A stretch of 64,000 bases of DNA, taken from contig JBDTOT010000018.1 in assembly GCA_039933105.1 (NCBI GenBank), positions 26,083-90,082 on the forward strand, read 5' to 3'. Position numbers and translations under genes: made by a program. This DNA comes from Gammaproteobacteria bacterium. GTDB lineage: Bacteria > Pseudomonadota > Gammaproteobacteria > Steroidobacterales > Rariloculaceae. Below are positions 53,061 through 61,392 of this stretch, piece by piece (the stretch's first letter is position 1; each line of letters opens with the position of its first letter). The notes below the pieces were generated by a model. That model was not told the origin of the DNA, made no database searches, and saw only the letters and a program-made list of their open reading frames with translations.

Positions 53061-53920
53061 TTCACGGACTCGATGGCACGTCGCAGCTCCGGCACGTAAT
53101 CCGGATACATCGTGGCGGCGCCACCGCGCGCTGCCGCCTGCGGCAACCCGTGCCGGATCGCGTACTCCGTCAGGAACGTATTCGTGCCCGGCAGATGGTG
53201 CGGCACCAGACCCCGCGGGCGCTCGATCTCGATGGCGGGAATGCACGAGAAGGGGCTCAACTCGAGCCCCGGATCGAGCACCCAGTCGGACGTACGAACG
53301 AGCGGCTCGGTGAGATATACGGGATCGGTGACGACGGTCGCCAGCGTCAAGTAGTCTTCGTGGCGGATGAAGTACTCGATGACGGTCGCGCGGTCGCTGC
53401 GCGGCAGACCGTTGCGGCGCACCCACGCCTCTTTCAGATGCGTGGTCGTCACCTTCAGTACATCGCCCTCCCACTCGCCCGTGGAAAAGCCCTGCCAGCT
53501 ATGCTGTGCGTATTGCGACGGATGCGGGCGGCCGTCCATATAGACGGTTCGATGCGACAGACTCCACATGACGGTAACGTCCCAGGACACGACATCCTGC
53601 GAGATCGGATCCACCGTGTTGCCGATCCGCAAGCTCGCCGGACCGCGCGGCGCGTAATCGGCCGGATGCGGCTCGCACTGCCTCTCCGGCATCGTCCACT
53701 TCGCCGCGTCCCACGAGTCGGCACGTAGACGAGCGGCGTCATTCACGGGTAACCCAGCGTAATCGCCGATCTCGGGGCCGGCGCCGCGCTCCGGCAGTTC
53801 CTCGTGGAACCGCTGCGCCCACATACCCGCAAGATCCATCTGCGCACGGACCGGCAGGCTCGCGCCAAGCACGAACAGGGCCGTGACGGCGGAAACGTAC
53901 GGCACCCGCGCCGCACTCAT
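53057..53920 (-). CDS. UXP superfamily, subtype C (C1), exported
   Basis: Starts 1 nt after the upstream stop. Landmarks: DLAGMW, GDYAGLPVND, RQCEPHP, YMDGRPHP, GEWEGDVLKVTT, VRRNGLPRSD, VTDPVYLTEPL. Confidence 0.85.
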   Translation of the reverse strand: MSAARVPYVSAVTALFVLGASLPVRAQMDLAGMWAQRFHEELPERGAGPEIGDYAGLPVNDAARLRADSWDAAKWTMPERQCEPHPADYAPRGPASLRIGNTVDPISQDVVSWDVTVMWSLSHRTVYMDGRPHPSQYAQHSWQGFSTGEWEGDVLKVTTTHLKEAWVRRNGLPRSDRATVIEYFIRHEDYLTLATVVTDPVYLTEPLVRTSDWVLDPGLELSPFSCIPAIEIERPRGLVPHHLPGTNTFLTEYAIRHGLPQAAARGGAATMYPDYVPELRRAIESVK

Positions 53921-53921
53921 G

Positions 53922-56090
53922 TCACTTCGCCAACGGGTCCGGCCGCAACTGGAACTTCACGACGGAGCTGTGCGTGCCCTTGCCGCCCTCGATGTGCCAC
54001 ACGGCGTTCTGCCCATAGTCAGCGTACATCGCGCGGCCTTTCCAGCCGCCGTTCGGATCGTCGATGCGGCCGTCCATGCCGCGCGAGAAAAAGCCGAGCG
54101 GGTATGGCACACGGAGCACGACCCAGCGACCGTCAGGCTGCAGCGCCAGCAGCGAGTCGGAGTTCGTGCCGTTCGCAATGGCCACGTTCGGTCCGAGACC
54201 GAGCGTGTTGTGCTGATCGACGAAGTTGTAATAGCTCATGTCGACAGGAATCGCGTCGGTGGCGCCCTTGAAGTGCGGCCCCGGAGTTCGGTAAAGCGTC
54301 CACCCCTCGGCGCAATGCTGCGGATTCAACGCCTCGGGACCCGTGAGGACGCGACACTTGCGTCGATCGAAGCTCGCGAGATGCCCGCTGCCCGCGAGCG
54401 CCGTCCAGATCACGCCGTTGGAGTCGACGTCGATGCCGCGCGGTGTGTAGCCGTTGACGTTTACCGCAGGGTTGTTGAACGGCGGCTCGTACACTTCCGA
54501 CACGCACGTCTTGGGATCGATGCGCACGATGCGCCCGGGCATCGGCCCCGGCACTGCGCCCCAAATGTGGCCGTCGGTCGGATGCGCGATGACGCTGTAG
54601 AAAACTCCGGGCGGAACCTCCATGCCGGCCAACATGCCGGTCGGCTTGGGAAAGTTCGCGAATACGTAGCGGTCCACCTTGGGATCAATCTTGCCGTCGC
54701 CGTCGACGTCGTAATAAGGCAAGCACCAACCTTGCGCCTTGGCCTCGTCGCCCGTCTCCTCGAGCACGCGCGTGTTGATCCAGCCGAGCGCGCCGCTGAA
54801 CACGCCATTCGCGTACAACGTCTCGTCCTTGTCGTTCGCGAACTGCACGTGGTGAGTGTCGAAGCACGTGTTCACCTGGTGGAACTGCTTCGTCTTCGGA
54901 TCGAAGTACTGCACCTGGCGGAAGCTCGTCGCTCGCGGCGCAAGCGCCGCCGACGGATGCGTCTTGCAGAACTCCGGCTGGTTCTCCGGAAGCCTGAACC
55001 GCGATGACATCCACACGCGGCCCTTGCGGTCCATGGCGGCATGATTCGTGATCGCCGGATCGAACCAGTACGGCTCGCTACCCCAGTAGGGCGACGGCTT
55101 CGGCATGACCTGTGGCTTGCCCGGCGGAATGTTCGCATCGCGCACCGGAATCCGCACGTCCGTCACCTGGTTGGTGTTCGGATCAAGCGTCAGGAACGCA
55201 TCGTTACCCCAGTCGACACCGTAGATCGGCCCCTTGGCATTCGCTGTCGGATTGCGTTTGTCGGTCGAGAGCTCGTCGTGCGCAAACGTGGCGGCGGAGC
55301 CCCACTCCCACAGCGTCAGCACGAGATTACGCTCGACACCCTCCGGGCGCGGCGGCACTGGCGGAAGCTCGCCGGCCGCAATTCGATCGGTCCAATCCGC
55401 GTACATCGTGAGCGCCGCTTTGCGGCCCATGGTGCCGAGCGCAGCAATCATCGAGGTGCCGTCCTGACCCACCTGCGTGCGGTGGTCCCAGGCGTCGTAA
55501 GACGATTCGAATTTGCCGAGCGCCGGCAACATCGTGCGCGTCGGCAGGTTGCCGAGTTGATGGCACACGTTGCAGCCAGTCTTGATCTCGTTGATCCAAT
55601 GGTGCTGCGTCGCCATCCGCGGCTCGATGCCGTTGCCTTGGGCGCCCGTGCCGGGGAATTGGTCGGCGCCCGGGATCTGAATTAGCGAGTACCAATAGCT
55701 CGCGGGGTACACCTGCGCCGCCGCGCGCGCGTCCGGCGCGATTACCGCTCGCAACGACACGTGACTACCCGGGGTTGCGCGAATGCTGGGCGAGTCTACG
55801 AGACCGTAACCCCGTACCCACAGCGTGTAAGTAGCCTGCGGCAGGTCGGGCAGCACGTAGCGACCCCGGTCGTCCGTGACGACGATCTTGCGGAACTTCG
55901 TGGGCAGGTCCGTCGTCTCGGCGATGACCCACACGCCGGCTTCCGGTCCGCGGTCGCCGGCAACGACCCCGGCGATGTCGTCGGAATCGATCGCGATCTC
56001 GCCGATCCCCTGGGCCCTCACGAATGAGGCCGCGCACGAGAATGCGCACGCCGCCAGGATCGCCGCGTAACTTCGCCGCAGGTTCGCCAT
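53922..56090 (-). CDS. Large secreted protein: carboxypeptidase-regulatory-like N-domain, single CxxCH motif, beta-propeller-like body
   Basis: ATG 56090 is preceded by AGGGGGG. Signal peptide, then VWVIAETTDLPTKFRKIVVTDDRGRYVLPDLPQATYTLWVRGYG (Ig-like CarboxypepD_reg pattern), then GCNVCHQLGN, then about 480 aa of repetitive strands. Confidence 0.8.
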   Translation of the reverse strand: MANLRRSYAAILAACAFSCAASFVRAQGIGEIAIDSDDIAGVVAGDRGPEAGVWVIAETTDLPTKFRKIVVTDDRGRYVLPDLPQATYTLWVRGYGLVDSPSIRATPGSHVSLRAVIAPDARAAAQVYPASYWYSLIQIPGADQFPGTGAQGNGIEPRMATQHHWINEIKTGCNVCHQLGNLPTRTMLPALGKFESSYDAWDHRTQVGQDGTSMIAALGTMGRKAALTMYADWTDRIAAGELPPVPPRPEGVERNLVLTLWEWGSAATFAHDELSTDKRNPTANAKGPIYGVDWGNDAFLTLDPNTNQVTDVRIPVRDANIPPGKPQVMPKPSPYWGSEPYWFDPAITNHAAMDRKGRVWMSSRFRLPENQPEFCKTHPSAALAPRATSFRQVQYFDPKTKQFHQVNTCFDTHHVQFANDKDETLYANGVFSGALGWINTRVLEETGDEAKAQGWCLPYYDVDGDGKIDPKVDRYVFANFPKPTGMLAGMEVPPGVFYSVIAHPTDGHIWGAVPGPMPGRIVRIDPKTCVSEVYEPPFNNPAVNVNGYTPRGIDVDSNGVIWTALAGSGHLASFDRRKCRVLTGPEALNPQHCAEGWTLYRTPGPHFKGATDAIPVDMSYYNFVDQHNTLGLGPNVAIANGTNSDSLLALQPDGRWVVLRVPYPLGFFSRGMDGRIDDPNGGWKGRAMYADYGQNAVWHIEGGKGTHSSVVKFQLRPDPLAK

Positions 56091-56183
56091 AGTCCCCCCT
56101 CGCTGTTCGCCGCTGCCCCTGTTCGCCGTTCGCTGCGGCGAAGGGGCACTGCCCGAAGGGGTTAGATAGCCCGCCAGCGCTTG

Positions 56184-56227
56184 GGAGTACTGAAATCGCT
56201 CCGAAAATGCCGGAAAAACGCCGAATG
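56184..56227. repeat. Direct-repeat unit R1 (GGAGTACTGAAATCGCTCCGAAAATGCCGGAAAAACGCCGAATG)
   Basis: Matches R2 at about 36 of 44 positions by eye. Contains the CTGAAATCGC 10-mer (56190-56199) and CCGAAAATGC (56201-56210). Confidence 0.6.
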
Positions 56228-56281
56228 ACCGGTTGATCGCCAAATTGCTCGGTTCTCACTGGGTACGCTAGACTGCCTCGA

Positions 56282-56324
56282 GGAGTACTCAAACGCTCCG
56301 AAAAGCGCGGAAGAACAACGAATG
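56282..56324. repeat. Direct-repeat unit R2 (GGAGTACTCAAACGCTCCGAAAAGCGCGGAAGAACAACGAATG)
   Basis: Lies 98 bp downstream of R1 in the same orientation. Its terminal ATG is the regulator start codon (56322). Confidence 0.6.
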
Positions 56325-58571
56325 CGCGCGCCCCCTCCAGTAAGCACTCCGCCCGGCGCGACGAACGCGGCGCCTATCGCCTATGTGTTCGGGGAATTCA
56401 CGCTCGACGTCGCATCGCGCCAACTCCGGCGTGACACAGACAGCGACGTGCAACTGCCCTCGCGTGCGTTCGATGCGCTCTTGTACCTGGTGGAACACCG
56501 CGATCGTCTCGTGCAAAAGAACGAGCTCGTCGAGGCCGTATGGCACGACGTGGTCGTTACCGACGACAGTCTGATACACGCGATCTCCGTCCTTCGACGA
56601 GCCCTCGCCGATGACCCCAACGAGCCGCGCTACGTCCAGACGGTTCCGCGCCGCGGCTACCGTTTCGTCGCCGCCGTTCGTGTCATCCCGGGCAGAACCG
56701 CGCCGACCGAAACGGCGCATAGGCCCTCCGCTGCCTCCGCATCCTTCGAAGCCGCCGGTGCGGCGATACGAGCCGACACGGCGCCGCGGCGAATCCGTTG
56801 GCTCCCCCAACGCAACGCGGCATCCGTAGGCATTGCCATCGCGTTGGCCGCCGCCATCGGGGTTGCTTGCGCCTCACTCTGGGGTGGCTTCCATCGGAAC
56901 GCAGAGGTCCGCGAACCGGGGCGAGCAGTCCGCCTGTTTCAGCCTGCCCCGGAGGGCGCGACCATCGTGTCGAGTGGCGTGCTGTCGCCCGACGGGCGGT
57001 GCCTGACATTCGTTGCGCGAGACAACTTGAGCGGCAGAAGCACGCTCTGGGTCCGCACGCTGCATTCTTCGGAGCTGAAGCCGCTCGACAACACGGCAGG
57101 CGCGTCCAAACCTTTTTGGTCTCCAGACTCTGCCCGCATCGGCTTCTTCGCCAGCGGCAACCTGATGACAGTGAATGCGGCCGGGGGCGAGGCTCGCACG
57201 GTTGCTCGCGTCGGTATCACGCCGGCGGGCGGAACGTGGGCCGGCGACGACACCATCCTGTTCGCGGACTGGGCCAAGGGCTTGTATGCCGTCGGAGCGC
57301 ACGGCGGGGAGCCCGAGACCGTGGCCACCCTCGACCGGACGGCGCGCGACATCGCTTTCTCGTGGCCACAGTTCCTGCCCGATGGACGCCATTTTCTGTA
57401 TCAAATCGTCAGTCTCGATGCGGCCCGCACCGGCACCTACGTCGGCGACCTCGACACCCGGAAAAGCGTCCGATTGTTGGACACGGAATCGCCGGCCGTC
57501 TTCGCCCCGCCTCAGTACGTCCTCCACATTCAGCGTGACATGTTGATCGCCGAGGAATTCGACGTGCGCACGCTGCAACTCACCGGTCGCGCCACCGTTC
57601 TGGCACGTGGGGTCTCGACGCCGTCACCTGCGGACGAGAACGTGGTATCGGCAGCGGGCGACCTGATCGCCTATCGTCAGGGTATCCGCCAACAGCAACT
57701 CGCGTGGGTGAACAGATCCGGTGAAATCCTGAGCACCGTGCACATGCCGATCGAGGTGTTCAACCCACGAGTCTCTCCGGACGGATCCCAGTTGCTCGCG
57801 ACGAGCTCGGTCACCACCAATCCCGGACTCTGGCTCGCGAGCTTGTCGCGTACGGAATTCGAGCGACTCGAGACCGATGCGATTGCGCCACTTTGGTCAC
57901 CGGACGGCGGGCGAATCGCTTACACGGCGCGCGGCGGGTTCGACCTGATCGTCCGCTCCACTGCGAGTGGCGACTCTCGTCCGCTGGTCACGGATGGCGC
58001 AATCAAAATACTGAACGACTGGTCGCCGGACGGCGAGCAGATTGTCTATACGCAACTCGACGATCGAACCCGGATGGATCTGTGGGGAATCCGCGTCAAA
58101 GACGGGACCGTGTTTCCAATTCTCGCAACGCCCTTCAACGAGATGCAGGCGCGAATCTCGCCCGATGGGAAATGGATCGCATACGTGTCGGACGAGAGTG
58201 GCGCGGCCGAGGTCTACGCACAACACTACCCGCAGCTCGGTGAGCGTTACAAAGTGTCGGCCGACGGTGGCGGCCAACCGCAATGGCGGCACGACCAGCG
58301 TGAGATGTTCTACATCGCGCCGGACCACACGATCGTCGCGGTTCCGGTCGACCCGTCTGGCGGGCAGCCCACCTTCGGCTCACCCCAACGCTTGTTCCGC
58401 GCTCCCGGTCCAGAGGGTGCGCGCGACAACTACGCCGCCACGGCAGACGGCAGACGGTTCCTCGTTGACGGCTCGATCGCGGACGTTGGCAACACCGCGA
58501 TCACCGTAGTGGTCAACTGGCCGGCGGAGGCCGGCGTCGCGGCGCAGCCGCGTGCCCAACGTCTCGAGTAA
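56322..58571 (+). CDS. Membrane-anchored winged-helix (OmpR/CadC-type) regulator with periplasmic TolB-like beta-propeller
   Basis: N-terminus FGEFTLDVASRQLRRD...LPSRAFDALLYLVEHRDRLVQKNELVEAVW...VPRRGYRF. One TM segment (VGIAIALAAAIGVACASLW). Repeated SPDG/PDGR propeller blades. Confidence 0.85.
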   Translation: MRAPPPVSTPPGATNAAPIAYVFGEFTLDVASRQLRRDTDSDVQLPSRAFDALLYLVEHRDRLVQKNELVEAVWHDVVVTDDSLIHAISVLRRALADDPNEPRYVQTVPRRGYRFVAAVRVIPGRTAPTETAHRPSAASASFEAAGAAIRADTAPRRIRWLPQRNAASVGIAIALAAAIGVACASLWGGFHRNAEVREPGRAVRLFQPAPEGATIVSSGVLSPDGRCLTFVARDNLSGRSTLWVRTLHSSELKPLDNTAGASKPFWSPDSARIGFFASGNLMTVNAAGGEARTVARVGITPAGGTWAGDDTILFADWAKGLYAVGAHGGEPETVATLDRTARDIAFSWPQFLPDGRHFLYQIVSLDAARTGTYVGDLDTRKSVRLLDTESPAVFAPPQYVLHIQRDMLIAEEFDVRTLQLTGRATVLARGVSTPSPADENVVSAAGDLIAYRQGIRQQQLAWVNRSGEILSTVHMPIEVFNPRVSPDGSQLLATSSVTTNPGLWLASLSRTEFERLETDAIAPLWSPDGGRIAYTARGGFDLIVRSTASGDSRPLVTDGAIKILNDWSPDGEQIVYTQLDDRTRMDLWGIRVKDGTVFPILATPFNEMQARISPDGKWIAYVSDESGAAEVYAQHYPQLGERYKVSADGGGQPQWRHDQREMFYIAPDHTIVAVPVDPSGGQPTFGSPQRLFRAPGPEGARDNYAATADGRRFLVDGSIADVGNTAITVVVNWPAEAGVAAQPRAQRLE

Positions 58572-58595
58572 GCGCGCCCGCCAGCGGAAACTCGC

Positions 58596-59102
58596 TCAGG
58601 GCGACCATTCCGCCGTGGGCTTCGGCAACGCGCCGCTCTCACCGTGCGAAGTTGCACCGGCGACGCTGTCGCAGTGCTTGCCTGGGGCCGGCGGCGTGTT
58701 GGGCGGGCATTTGAATAACCCGGATTTGCCCCGACCGCCACCCGTCAATCCGCTACGCAACGGATGCAGGCCAATGCTGAAAATCGTCCCAGGCGGAAAG
58801 CTCTGAGCCGTTATACCCTCGAGCGCAACTTGGCTCGCTGAGCGCAGCTCGACGGACCAGATCACGGGTTTTCCCGCAGCGTCGCGGACGACCACCTGGC
58901 GCGCTTCGTTCAGAGGCGAAAAAAAGATCGTGAGGTGACTAGGATCGGGGCTCACGCGCGTGACGACCCCGGTCAAAACGTAGGTCTTCTCACCGTCGTA
59001 CATCGCAAACGAATGATGCGCGAATGCCGACATGGAGGCAGCCCCAGCGACCACGGTCGCGAGCAAGGCGACAGCCGCGGAGCTAAAACGACGTTGCTGC
59101 AT
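58596..59102 (-). CDS. HH-family small periplasmic protein (B5) with Cys-containing C-terminal tail
   Basis: ATG 59102 lies 11 nt after the E2 stop; the 315-aa track ORF overshoots. Signal peptide ending SAFA, then HHSFAMYD and DPSH. The tail contains FKCPPNTPPAPGKHC. Confidence 0.78.
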   Translation of the reverse strand: MQQRRFSSAAVALLATVVAGAASMSAFAHHSFAMYDGEKTYVLTGVVTRVSPDPSHLTIFFSPLNEARQVVVRDAAGKPVIWSVELRSASQVALEGITAQSFPPGTIFSIGLHPLRSGLTGGGRGKSGLFKCPPNTPPAPGKHCDSVAGATSHGESGALPKPTAEWSP

Positions 59103-59113
59103 ATCGCTCTCCG

Positions 59114-60472
59114 TCACTTGAATCCGAACAGCGGCGCAGCGGTGGGTCGTTCCATACCGGCCTCGAAGTACTGTTCCCAGATTTGCGCCCAGGGTCGGTT
59201 GTACACATCGGGCACGGTGTACTCGATCGTCGTCCCGGGCGGAACCGGCGTTGCGATTCCGTTGATCGGGTAGTTGTAGCGGACACACTCGATATAGAGA
59301 TAAGGGTTCCCCTCGTTTAGCGCGCCCGTCTTGTCCCACCGGTGGATGATTCGCACCGGCTGCACCAGGGCTTCCGGATCGTAGAAGACAGCCTCGTGAA
59401 CGATGCCGTTGACCCTGCCCTGGTCGTCCTTCCGCGGCGTGTAGATCTCGATCGACTGCATCTGGCTGCTGAACTCGAACGCTCCGTGCGACATCCAGCC
59501 CTGGACGTTCGACGTCCATGTCACGAGCGCATCTCCATCCCAAAAGCCGATCGTCTCACCGTACCAGCGACGGACGTCCGCGGAGAGATACGGCACAGTG
59601 CCGTCCTCTTTGAATCGCCGCCCGATCAGTGCGTGCGTGATGAAGTTTCCCGCCGTGACGTTCAGCACCTGGAACAGCTCGGGAGTCATCATGATCGAAG
59701 GGCTGAAGCCGGAGTACTGCGCGATCCGCCGCATGAACCCTTCGGGCTGGCAGTACGACGCCGGCCACTGCGGCGCGTTGGTCGCAGCGTAGTGATACAT
59801 CTGCTGCACGAACCGAGTTTGGTATTCGGGTGTCAGCAGTGTCAGGTAGGTGGGTATCTGGAGCACTGCACCGTGATACCAGGTCGCCATCTTCGAGGCG
59901 TCCCGGCGATAGTTTCCGTTCCAGTTCGGTAGCGTGGCCTGGGTGTAGACGGTAGGCCCGCCTCGCTTGACCGTGTCCGCGAGCATCGCTTCGTAATGCT
60001 GTTTCGCGGTCTTGAATGGGTACGGGCTCACGATCTGATCGCGCGGATAATCCCGATCGCAGTACCCCCACGCGGCAGACGCGGGCGGCGAGTTGCCGAT
60101 CGTCGGCGTCTCGACTGCGCCCCATTGCGCTTCGAGACCGAGCGGCGAGTTACAGCGGAAATAGCGCGCGTCGCGCCACAGCTCGCGGTCCTTGTAGAAA
60201 TCCTTGGTCGTGAAAATGTCGCGCGGCAGCGGGCTGATGCCGGGAGGCGCCGCGCCGTTCTTTGCGGCGATGACGGGCACGACGTCGTCCGGCACGCCGG
60301 GACCCACCGCCGTACCCTTGCCGTCCGGGCCCACCATCTGATCGACGTGCAGGGGCGCCGGCGCACCTCGGCCAACCAGGGGGGCCTGCGCATTGACGCA
60401 TGGCGCGATCAGGCAGACGGTCACCGCGATGATCGTCCACGACGGCCGGCCCGCGCATCGGCAAACGAGCAT
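59114..60472 (-). CDS. UXP superfamily, subtype E (E2), exported
   Basis: RBS GGGGGA. Paralogue of 12032..13438 along its full length. Confidence 0.85.
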
Positions 60473-60615
60473 CCTACGTCCCCCCGAAAATGCGGATCTG
60501 GTTCGAGCCGCGCGGTTGCGGCCCGACTAACGGCTACGGATACCGGACGCCTTCGGCGAAGTCCGGAACAAAAGCGGAAAAGGTCCGAAAAACACCGAAC
60601 GGCGCAGCGGTCGCA

Positions 60616-61392
60616 TCAAGCCGGCGCTGAGCTCGGCGGCTCTGCTGCTCCTGTCATGAATGCCACCGCGTCGGCCATCGTGCAGTCCGTCGGCTCGATG
60701 ACGCACAACCTGCGCCCCAGGCGATGGATGTGGATGCGGTCGGCGACGTCGAACACATGAGGCATGTCGTGGCTGATCATGACGACCGACACTCCGCGGG
60801 CCCGCACCTCGCGGATCACGTCGAGAACCTTGCCGGTCTCTTTCACGCCCAGCGCTGCGGTGGGCTCATCTAGGATCACGATCTTCGAGCCGAACGCCAC
60901 CGCTCGAGCGACCGCAAGACCTTGCCGCTGACCGCCGGACAGCGTCTCCACCGCCTGGCGCATGTCCTTGATCGTCAGCAGCCCGAGATCGGCCAGTTTC
61001 CGGCGCGCGGTGTCTTCCATTGCGGACCGGTCGAGCTTCCGGAGCCACCGACCCATGAAACCCGGAGCTCGCACCTCCCGGCCCATAAACAGGTTGTCGG
61101 TGATCGACAGCGCCGGCGACAACGCCAGACCCTGATACACCGTCTCGATACCGGCAGCCCGTGCCTGCAGCGGCGAGACGAACTCCACGACGCGGCTCTC
61201 GAGGCGAATTTCGCCACTGTCCGGGCGCAACGCGCCCGAGATCGCCTTGATCAGCGTCGATTTGCCGGCGCCGTTATCGCCGATCACCGCCAGAATCTCG
61301 CCGGGCCGCAAGTCGAAATCGGCGTGATCGAGCGCCGTGATACGTCCAAAGCGTTTGACGAGACCGCGGACCGTGAGGATCGGTTCGGCCAT
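60616..61392 (-). CDS. Sugar ABC transporter ATP-binding protein
   Basis: ATG 61392; the 477-aa track ORF overshoots into the permease gene. Motifs seen: Walker A GDNGAGKST, signature LSGGQRQ, Walker B IVILDEPT. Confidence 0.9.
   Translation of the reverse strand: MAEPILTVRGLVKRFGRITALDHADFDLRPGEILAVIGDNGAGKSTLIKAISGALRPDSGEIRLESRVVEFVSPLQARAAGIETVYQGLALSPALSITDNLFMGREVRAPGFMGRWLRKLDRSAMEDTARRKLADLGLLTIKDMRQAVETLSGGQRQGLAVARAVAFGSKIVILDEPTAALGVKETGKVLDVIREVRARGVSVVMISHDMPHVFDVADRIHIHRLGRRLCVIEPTDCTMADAVAFMTGAAEPPSSAPA

Follow-up and report, generated by a model that had tools for sequence, protein, structure and literature searches.

ToxR of Vibrio cholerae, a membrane-anchored one-component regulator with an N-terminal cytoplasmic winged helix of the OmpR type, binds TNAAA-N5-TNAAA direct repeats known as the 'tox box' (PMC8517210). 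ToxR protomers line up in tandem on the DNA upstream of the promoter, the wing reaching into the minor groove of the A-tract. CadC of E. coli has a winged helix and a periplasmic sensor joined by a single transmembrane helix, and its site is AT-rich and quasi-palindromic (consensus T-T-A-x-x-x-x-T), with two DNA-binding domains arranged head to head on it (PMC5430869). In TcpP, the site is found at −52 to −35, where arrays abut or replace the −35 element of weak promoters. The pho box array of PhoB, with TGTCA as its unit, likewise abuts or replaces the −35 element of weak promoters. Here, a related arrangement is described in a stretch of 64,000 nucleotides (nt) from a gammaproteobacterium of the family Rariloculaceae (contig JBDTOT010000018.1, positions 26,083 to 90,082), referred to below as the window. 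It contains three copies of one motif, R1, R2 and R3, on either side of a gene for a membrane-anchored regulator (56322–58571), and from their sequence and surroundings we consider it fairly probable that they serve the protein encoded between them, a ToxR-like one-component regulator, as operators of the tandem direct-repeat kind.

Aligned with a single 1-nt gap, R1 (56184–56227) and R2 (56282–56324) share 36 of 44 positions, which bears out both the coordinates and the agreement reported in an initial annotation of the same DNA. Local self-alignment of the divergent region 56091–56324 gave a score of 52, far above that of 300 dinucleotide-preserving shuffles (mean 16.8, standard deviation 2.4, maximum 27), and a repeat finder splits the match into a 34-nt block at 79% and a 12-nt block at 92%. 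The consensus over all motif copies is (A/G)GT(A/C)C-N-GAA-N8-GAAAA-N3-C(G/C)GAAAAA-N2-C(C/T)GAA. Each copy consists of AGT and four CNGAA(AA) units in direct repeat, with the GAA starts 11, 10 and 10 bp apart. In R1, the motif spans 56186–56225 on the plus strand and reads AGTAC-T-GAA-N8-GAAAA-N3-CGGAAAAA-N2-CCGAA, with CNGAA units starting at 56190, 56201, 56211 and 56221. In R2 (56284–56322, plus strand), the first spacer has 7 nt, not 8, and the motif occupies the 5′ leader of the regulator gene and runs into its ATG at 56322; its 3′ half, GAAAAGCGCGGAAGAACAACGAATG, is near-invariant over eight loci. The four-unit arrangement with steps of 10–11 bp is also present in R2, R3 and all orthologues, so that every copy holds the two or more direct repeats expected of a tandem operator of the OmpR/PhoB type. 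The informative period is therefore the 10–11-bp unit inside each copy and not the 98 bp between copies that had been put forward initially. The same annotation had offered either a duplicated start of the regulator gene or a repeated protein-binding site as the meaning of the repeat. The second is retained, since the motif seems best explained as a site for the adjacent OmpR-type winged-helix protein, with a different period and with one more copy that had been missed.

This third copy, R3, is located at 60560–60599 on the plus strand (AGTCC-G-GAA-N8-GAAAA-N3-CCGAAAAA-N2-CCGAA), upstream of an operon that encodes a 452-residue and a DUF6152 protein; its GTCC is separated by 88 nt from the ATG (60472) of the minus-strand gene for the 452-residue protein. 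R3 was found at the equivalent place in L001, L003, L004, L007–L010, L020, L034, L049, L053 and L055, which belong to a set of orthologous loci gathered from metagenomes, protein look-ups and a genome-wide pattern scan, with regulators 50–83% identical to that of the window. A weight matrix was trained on the orthologous loci only, with the window excluded, both in an ungapped version and in a version allowing the 7-nt first spacer. In the window, R1 scored 58.5 bits and R3 46.4 bits (56 and 47 bits in the scoring that gave 40 bits for R2), while R2 scored 16.7 bits without a gap and 40.1 bits once the shorter spacer was allowed. The next-best match to the ungapped matrix within the 64 kb reached 5.3 bits, and shuffles gave 15 at most. 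Over 217 kb from 19 sources, 37 of the 38 matches fell at R1, R2 or R3 positions, all on the coding strand of the regulator.

The exact pattern GAA-N8-GAAAA-N3-CSGAAAAA-N2-CYGAA was also scanned for in one genome per species over 185,579 species. It was found in 41 stretches, nine of which (10 matches) come from seven metagenome-assembled genomes (MAGs) of uncultured Gammaproteobacteria, and the remaining 32 from unrelated taxa. All nine stretches adjoin the regulator gene cluster, and the strict motif is therefore found nowhere else in those seven genomes. Of the other 32 stretches, the two that were read, L027 and L048 (in other gammaproteobacterial contexts), were rejected as regulator sites, having no winged-helix neighbour; one of them is inside an HU gene.

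It could be argued that the motif is read by some other factor, such as an unlinked response regulator of the OmpR/PhoB family or a nucleoid protein, or that its A-runs bend DNA or act as an UP-like element. The A-runs are indeed phased at 10–11 bp, R1 and R3 are upstream of weak promoters, and it is from sequence that the motif has been assigned to the regulator. On the other hand, conservation is not limited to the A-runs but includes the flanking C and G and the AGT(A/C)C end, and R2 is downstream of the −10 element, a position in which an UP element would be meaningless. Moreover, the strict pattern stands solely beside the regulator gene in the seven genomes, and motif and regulator stay linked from 83% down to 50% identity. 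Taken together, this explanation is considered improbable, and binding by the encoded regulator is preferred.

The regulator has 749 residues (plus strand), with an OmpR-type winged helix at about residues 24–120, one transmembrane helix at about 166–189 and a TolB-like beta-propeller that would be periplasmic. Pfam identified Trans_reg_C (5.2e-16) at residues 42–115 and PD40 (3e-26). The best solved relatives of the DNA-binding domain are ToxR (1e-13; 7nmb, 8b4b) and CadC (8e-13; 5ju7), and the C-terminal part of about 560 residues matches PD40 repeats and TolB propellers, with TolB as its best solved relative. A single hydrophobic 19-residue peak was found at 166–189, after RRIRWLPQR, and the positive-inside rule predicts a cytoplasmic N terminus and a periplasmic C-terminal part. 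No Response_reg match was obtained for the regulator in Pfam, nor was a kinase gene seen among the genes of the conserved cluster. Since its winged helix is close to those of ToxR and CadC, and since it has one transmembrane helix and no receiver domain, the protein is classed among the ToxR-like one-component regulators anchored in the membrane, with a periplasmic domain of a new kind. The recognition helix (VVVTDDSLIHAISVLRRAL) and the wing (PRRGYRF) vary hardly at all among the loci having the motif. More than 5,600 relatives of the regulator were obtained at E ≤ 1e-20 in a first search, and no published study of regulators combining a winged helix with PD40 was found in the literature. A 749-residue open reading frame (ORF) at 25188–27437 was considered as a second, paralogous regulator within the window and discarded, as it has no similarity to the first.

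The likeness to ToxR thus concerns both the protein, with its membrane anchor and N-terminal cytoplasmic winged helix, and the site, in which A-rich pentamers recur every 10 bp as direct repeats in both cases (here SGAAA-N5-SGAAA). The differences are also clear. The unit of this locus begins with C-N-G rather than T-N, the site has four units in addition to an AGT(A/C)C end, and the DNA has about 65% G+C. According to the alignment, the base-reading residues T77/Q78 of ToxR are matched by I/H. The periplasmic part is a TolB-like propeller of about 560 residues, not the small ToxR domain, and no gene for a ToxS-like partner was seen here. In addition, binding, which is here a prediction, would include a site in the regulator's own leader, and this position implies autoregulation. 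CadC shares the topology of the protein, is its second-best structural match and also has more than one site upstream of its target operon (Cad1/Cad2), but the units at this locus are strictly direct repeats, and the propeller differs in fold from the sensors of CadC and ToxR alike. With the pho box of PhoB and the sites of OmpR and TcpP, the motif shares direct repeats at 10–11 bp, that is, one protomer per helical turn. PhoB and OmpR, unlike TcpP, are soluble response regulators switched by phosphorylation, whereas the regulator described here has no receiver domain, and the PhoB unit is unrelated in sequence to CNGAA(AA).

Absence of the repeat at orthologous loci, named in the initial annotation as an outcome that would speak against it, is not what was found, as both copies are conserved there. 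The motif is kept at about 18 orthologous loci of uncultured Gammaproteobacteria, and the gene order of the cluster is the same at every one of them, except that L054 lacks the DUF6152/452-residue pair. The motif copies appear as conserved blocks amid spacers that vary in length and cannot be aligned. At the eight closest loci, the divergent region aligns in blocks only, namely the ribosome-binding site of the left gene, GCTA(G/C)ATAGCC, R1, AAATTGCC, GGTA(C/G)GCTAGACT and R2, and the stretch between R1 and the AAATTGCC block is unalignable. R1 itself, upstream of a minus-strand operon that begins at 56090 (not at 56091, as first annotated), is kept in all orthologues. The distance between R1 and R2 at other loci is 97, 116, 129, 140, 161, 172 or 186 bp. 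Since it varies without any phase, the 98-bp period is accidental to this genome, and both a helical phase shared by the two copies and a DNA loop joining them were rejected on these spacings.

The distant loci L042, L053, L054 and L055, with regulators 50–57% identical to that of the window, have a short intergenic region and a single motif copy in it, 9–10 nt after GCTAGACT and 77–92 nt from the ATG of the left gene. These single sites are found in L042:3680–3740, L053:3895–3950, L054:3955–4010 and L055:3945–4003. One site fills both positions in these loci, which looks like the ancestral state, a shared operator later duplicated in the clade of the window. In that clade, block and motif occur twice, as GCTAGATAGCC...R1 and GCTAGACTGCC...R2. 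An old duplication as the origin of R1 and R2 is proposed because more distant orthologues carry one shared site and because the upstream block is common to both copies. In L042 and L053–L055, the regulator gene and the divergent operon flank the single motif, which is at once upstream of the target gene and downstream of the regulator's −10. This placement recalls the divergent logic of LysR-type regulators, where a shared site serves autorepression and divergent activation. Protein family and site architecture are unrelated, and in the lineage of the window the shared site has become two.

R1 orthologues share on average 35 matches of 44 among themselves and R2 orthologues 38, while R1 and R2 share 31, both within one genome and across genomes. 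Both copies have therefore been retained since an old duplication, with no sign of concerted evolution; a recent duplication was likewise discarded on these counts. The same numbers bear on the idea that R1 is no more than a relic without function, left when the promoter-proximal region of the regulator gene was duplicated in tandem. A shared upstream block together with the motif, and the single copy at more distant loci, are what such a relic would leave. However, both copies have been kept since an old event, the spacer between them (97–186 bp) has diverged beyond alignment, and R1 remains at a fixed distance from the divergent gene, which makes a relic hardly credible.

R3 follows the fate of its operon. 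In L054 (6257–7430), the regulator and the left operon are kept, and both the DUF6152/452-residue pair and R3 are absent; R3 and the right operon were therefore lost or gained together. The relative at L009/L031 (4140–8117) has two tandem pairs of DUF6152 and about 455-residue genes, with R3 between the pairs, upstream of the one closer to the regulator. At L020, L037 and L044, tblastn matches to the cluster proteins came in overlapping pieces in different frames, which suggests frameshift errors of the MAG assemblies.

A likely sigma-70-type promoter of the regulator gene was located at 56245–56274 on the plus strand, with TTGCTC (56245–56250), an 18-nt spacer and TAGACT (56269–56274), the last within GCTAGACT. 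GCTAGACT (56267–56274 in the window) is identical at all 18 loci read, the window and 17 others, with regulators down to 50% identity, and AAATTGCC is found 17–18 nt upstream of TAGACT in most loci. Such conservation of GCTAGACT exceeds what a −10 hexamer alone would need. From the predicted −35/−10 pair, transcription of the regulator gene likely starts near 56281, and R2 would therefore make up the whole 5′ leader and run into the ATG. A scan of 55900–56500 for sigma-70 promoters and terminators returned no site, with the conserved regulator promoter itself below the threshold of the scan. The regulator gene has only GGAAG as a ribosome-binding site, within R2, which is consistent with low-level synthesis of the regulator.

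For the flanking operons, R1 and R3 have the same orientation and are about 80–115 nt upstream of the minus-strand genes. The distance from the GTAC of R1 to the ATG of the left gene is 82–96 nt wherever the start codon was cleanly located, the single-site locus L042 included, and from R3 to the ATG of the right operon it is 88–116 nt across loci. Eighteen nt from R1 is the block GTTAGATAGCC (56161–56171; GCTAGATAGCC or GCTACATAGCC in orthologues), which gives TATCTA on the minus strand, a candidate −10 of the divergent operon. Its TA.ATAG is invariant in eight loci, and the approximately 60 nt from the block to the gene start are not conserved. The form GCTAGATAGCC preceding R1, related to GCTAGACT, is partly palindromic (GCTA..TAGC). 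At the same distance of 18 nt from R3, the block ACGGATACC (60536–60544) gives TATCCG on the minus strand as a candidate −10 of the 452-residue/DUF6152 operon, and GGATA(C/G) or a related TAT-containing block is present at equal distance from R3 in orthologues. If these TAT blocks are −10 regions, the motif would be at about −28 to −71, a placement that would fit the tandem activator sites described above. Both target operons start with a strong GGGGGGA ribosome-binding site (56077–56100 and 60473–60490, minus strand).

Putting these elements together, up to four winged-helix domains could line up head to tail on a single face of the DNA, each inserting its recognition helix into the major groove and its wing into the minor groove, which is narrow at the A-runs. 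A signal sensed by the periplasmic propeller would most likely lead the regulator, at R1 and R3, to recruit RNA polymerase to the weak promoters of the flanking operons. At R2, between the −10 of its own promoter and the start codon, occupancy would most likely lower expression of the regulator as negative feedback. The old duplication of a 'GCTAGA..GCC + motif' block would then have split two roles that the single site of distant relatives may still serve together. Such a signalling module, in which a tethered regulator with a TolB-like propeller senses the periplasm and directly activates two operons for exported proteins, while a bidirectional operator has been split into R1 for the target and R2 for autoregulation, is put forward tentatively, as a proposal with somewhat less than an even chance of being right in all its parts.

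The weakest step is the sign of regulation. In a live rival, although one that we regard as unlikely, the regulator represses at each of the three sites by covering its own promoter and those of both operons, until a periplasmic signal releases it. The start sites of the promoters are predicted ones, the motif of the single-site loci is about 10 nt from GCTAGACT, a distance typical of repressor sites, and ToxR itself is reported to repress ompT (PMC6733452). Nevertheless, the scan recognised no −35 or −10 element overlapping R1 or R3, and the sites are placed like those of the tandem activators ToxR and TcpP. The target promoters also look activator-dependent, because their match to the consensus is weak. 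Activation at R1 and R3 is therefore still preferred.

Several points weigh against the operator model as a whole or against its details. We infer, from the sequence, that the regulator binds the motif, with what stoichiometry and sign it acts, and where transcription starts. The TAT blocks match the −10 consensus poorly and do not have the usual final T, and no minus-strand promoter was found in the scan; since the position of the sites relative to the minus-strand start depends on these blocks, the choice between activation and repression is a guess. The geometry is not uniform either, the gap between GCTAGACT and the motif being 9–10 nt in single-site loci and not 18. The exact-pattern scan may have missed weaker sites elsewhere in those genomes, a different protein might recognise the motif, and ribosome binding or features of the messenger RNA (mRNA) could add to the extreme conservation of R2.

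This last point leads to the possibility that the element acts as RNA, with R2 as a leader that governs how the regulator mRNA is translated or how stable it is, and R1 as a second leader or else a small RNA that carries a mini-ORF. Being between the −10 and the ATG, R2 is almost certainly transcribed, and a GGAG...CUCC stem of 4–5 pairs can form at its 5′ end in 8/8 loci. However, none of the nine predicted pairs of the R2 fold shows a compensatory change over the eight loci, and the covariation term is positive. Neither R2 (z = −1.7) nor R1 (z = −0.4) folds better than its shuffles, and Rfam 15 gave nothing at E ≤ 1 over 55900–60800. The stem and the ATG of R1 are lost in orthologues, and R3 has no consistent plus-strand transcript, since the gene upstream of it and the orientation of that gene differ between loci. 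A periodicity of 10–11 bp, moreover, belongs to the DNA helix. An RNA element is thus very unlikely, and DNA operators remain the preferred explanation.

Other features of the first annotation proved to be present in the window and to have a lesser meaning than was proposed. The mini-ORF ATG ACC GGT TGA at the end of R1 had been taken for a copy of the regulator start, but its ATG (56225–56227) is ATA, ACA or AAG in L001, L003, L010, L008 and L009, so the start codon that an upstream ORF would keep is not conserved. The ATG is a by-product of the fourth motif unit, CCGAA(T/C/A)G. The interrupted stem CCCCTGTTCGCCG / CGGCGAAGGGG (56116–56128 and 56136–56146) does exist, as a hairpin at 56116–56146 on the minus strand in what is presumably the left operon's 5′ leader, with a minimum free energy of −35 to −39 kcal/mol. 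It is more stable than shuffles (z = −2.9 for 56091–56160 and −3.45 for a slightly different leader span), but neither its sequence nor its stability is conserved elsewhere. At orthologous loci, the leader z ranges from +1.9 to −1.5, with the hairpin partly present in L007, the closest relative, and the other leaders unrelated. The doubled CTGTTCGCCG (56103–56112 and 56119–56128) is likewise real and is part of this lineage-specific leader.

In the same way, the 10-mer CCGAAAATGC of R1 does recur at 60484–60493, but the link to the right operon is R3 and not this copy. It is common only to the window and L007, the closest orthologue, and adjoins the ribosome-binding site of the gene for the 452-residue protein, and it was rejected as a third site on both grounds. 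R1 has 35 10-mers, and with both strands counted (128 kb) roughly 4 recurrences are expected by our own arithmetic, so that a single one is about the chance level.

The control element is ordinary in kind, with an architecture as expected from ToxR, TcpP and PhoB, and it overturns nothing; the regulator family is the part that is unstudied. The motif provides a concrete candidate operator, with a proposed regulon of three promoters, for membrane-anchored regulators with TolB-like sensors, a family that is large and uncharacterised. It would also tie two operons without assigned function to one sensor, as a starting point toward the signal. The comparison of single- and double-site loci may show how a shared divergent operator duplicates and its roles separate and, if the model is true, would offer a clean example from nature of a cis-element undergoing subfunctionalisation.

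The left operon starts with the gene for a 722-residue exported protein (53922–56090, minus strand), divergent from the regulator, which has a weak CarboxypepD_reg match. It is followed by genes for a metallo-beta-lactamase-fold protein (52101–53474) and a 271-residue protein (51289–52104). The 722-residue protein has a single CNVCH (CxxCH) motif at residues about 172–176, which suggests covalent haem binding. Its operon partner gave weak, sub-threshold matches to 'quinoprotein relay system zinc metallohydrolase' models. The right operon (58596–60472, minus strand), convergent to the regulator, encodes the 452-residue protein (59114–60472), without a family match, and the DUF6152 protein (58596–59102). 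No PDB match was obtained for the 722- and 452-residue proteins, and no NCBIfam match for these two, the 271-residue protein or the DUF6152 protein; no papers on DUF6152 were found in the literature.

Paralogues of genes of both operons are present in the window. The gene at 12032–13438 (minus strand) is a paralogue of the 452-residue one, with 45% identity over its full length. Since the weight-matrix scan gave no motif copy upstream of it, this paralogue is seemingly outside the regulon. A 772-residue ORF at 39697–42015 (minus strand) is 40% identical in its C-terminal part to the metallo-beta-lactamase-fold protein and 35% identical over about 110 residues to the 271-residue protein, and it appears to be a fused paralogue of these two left-operon genes.

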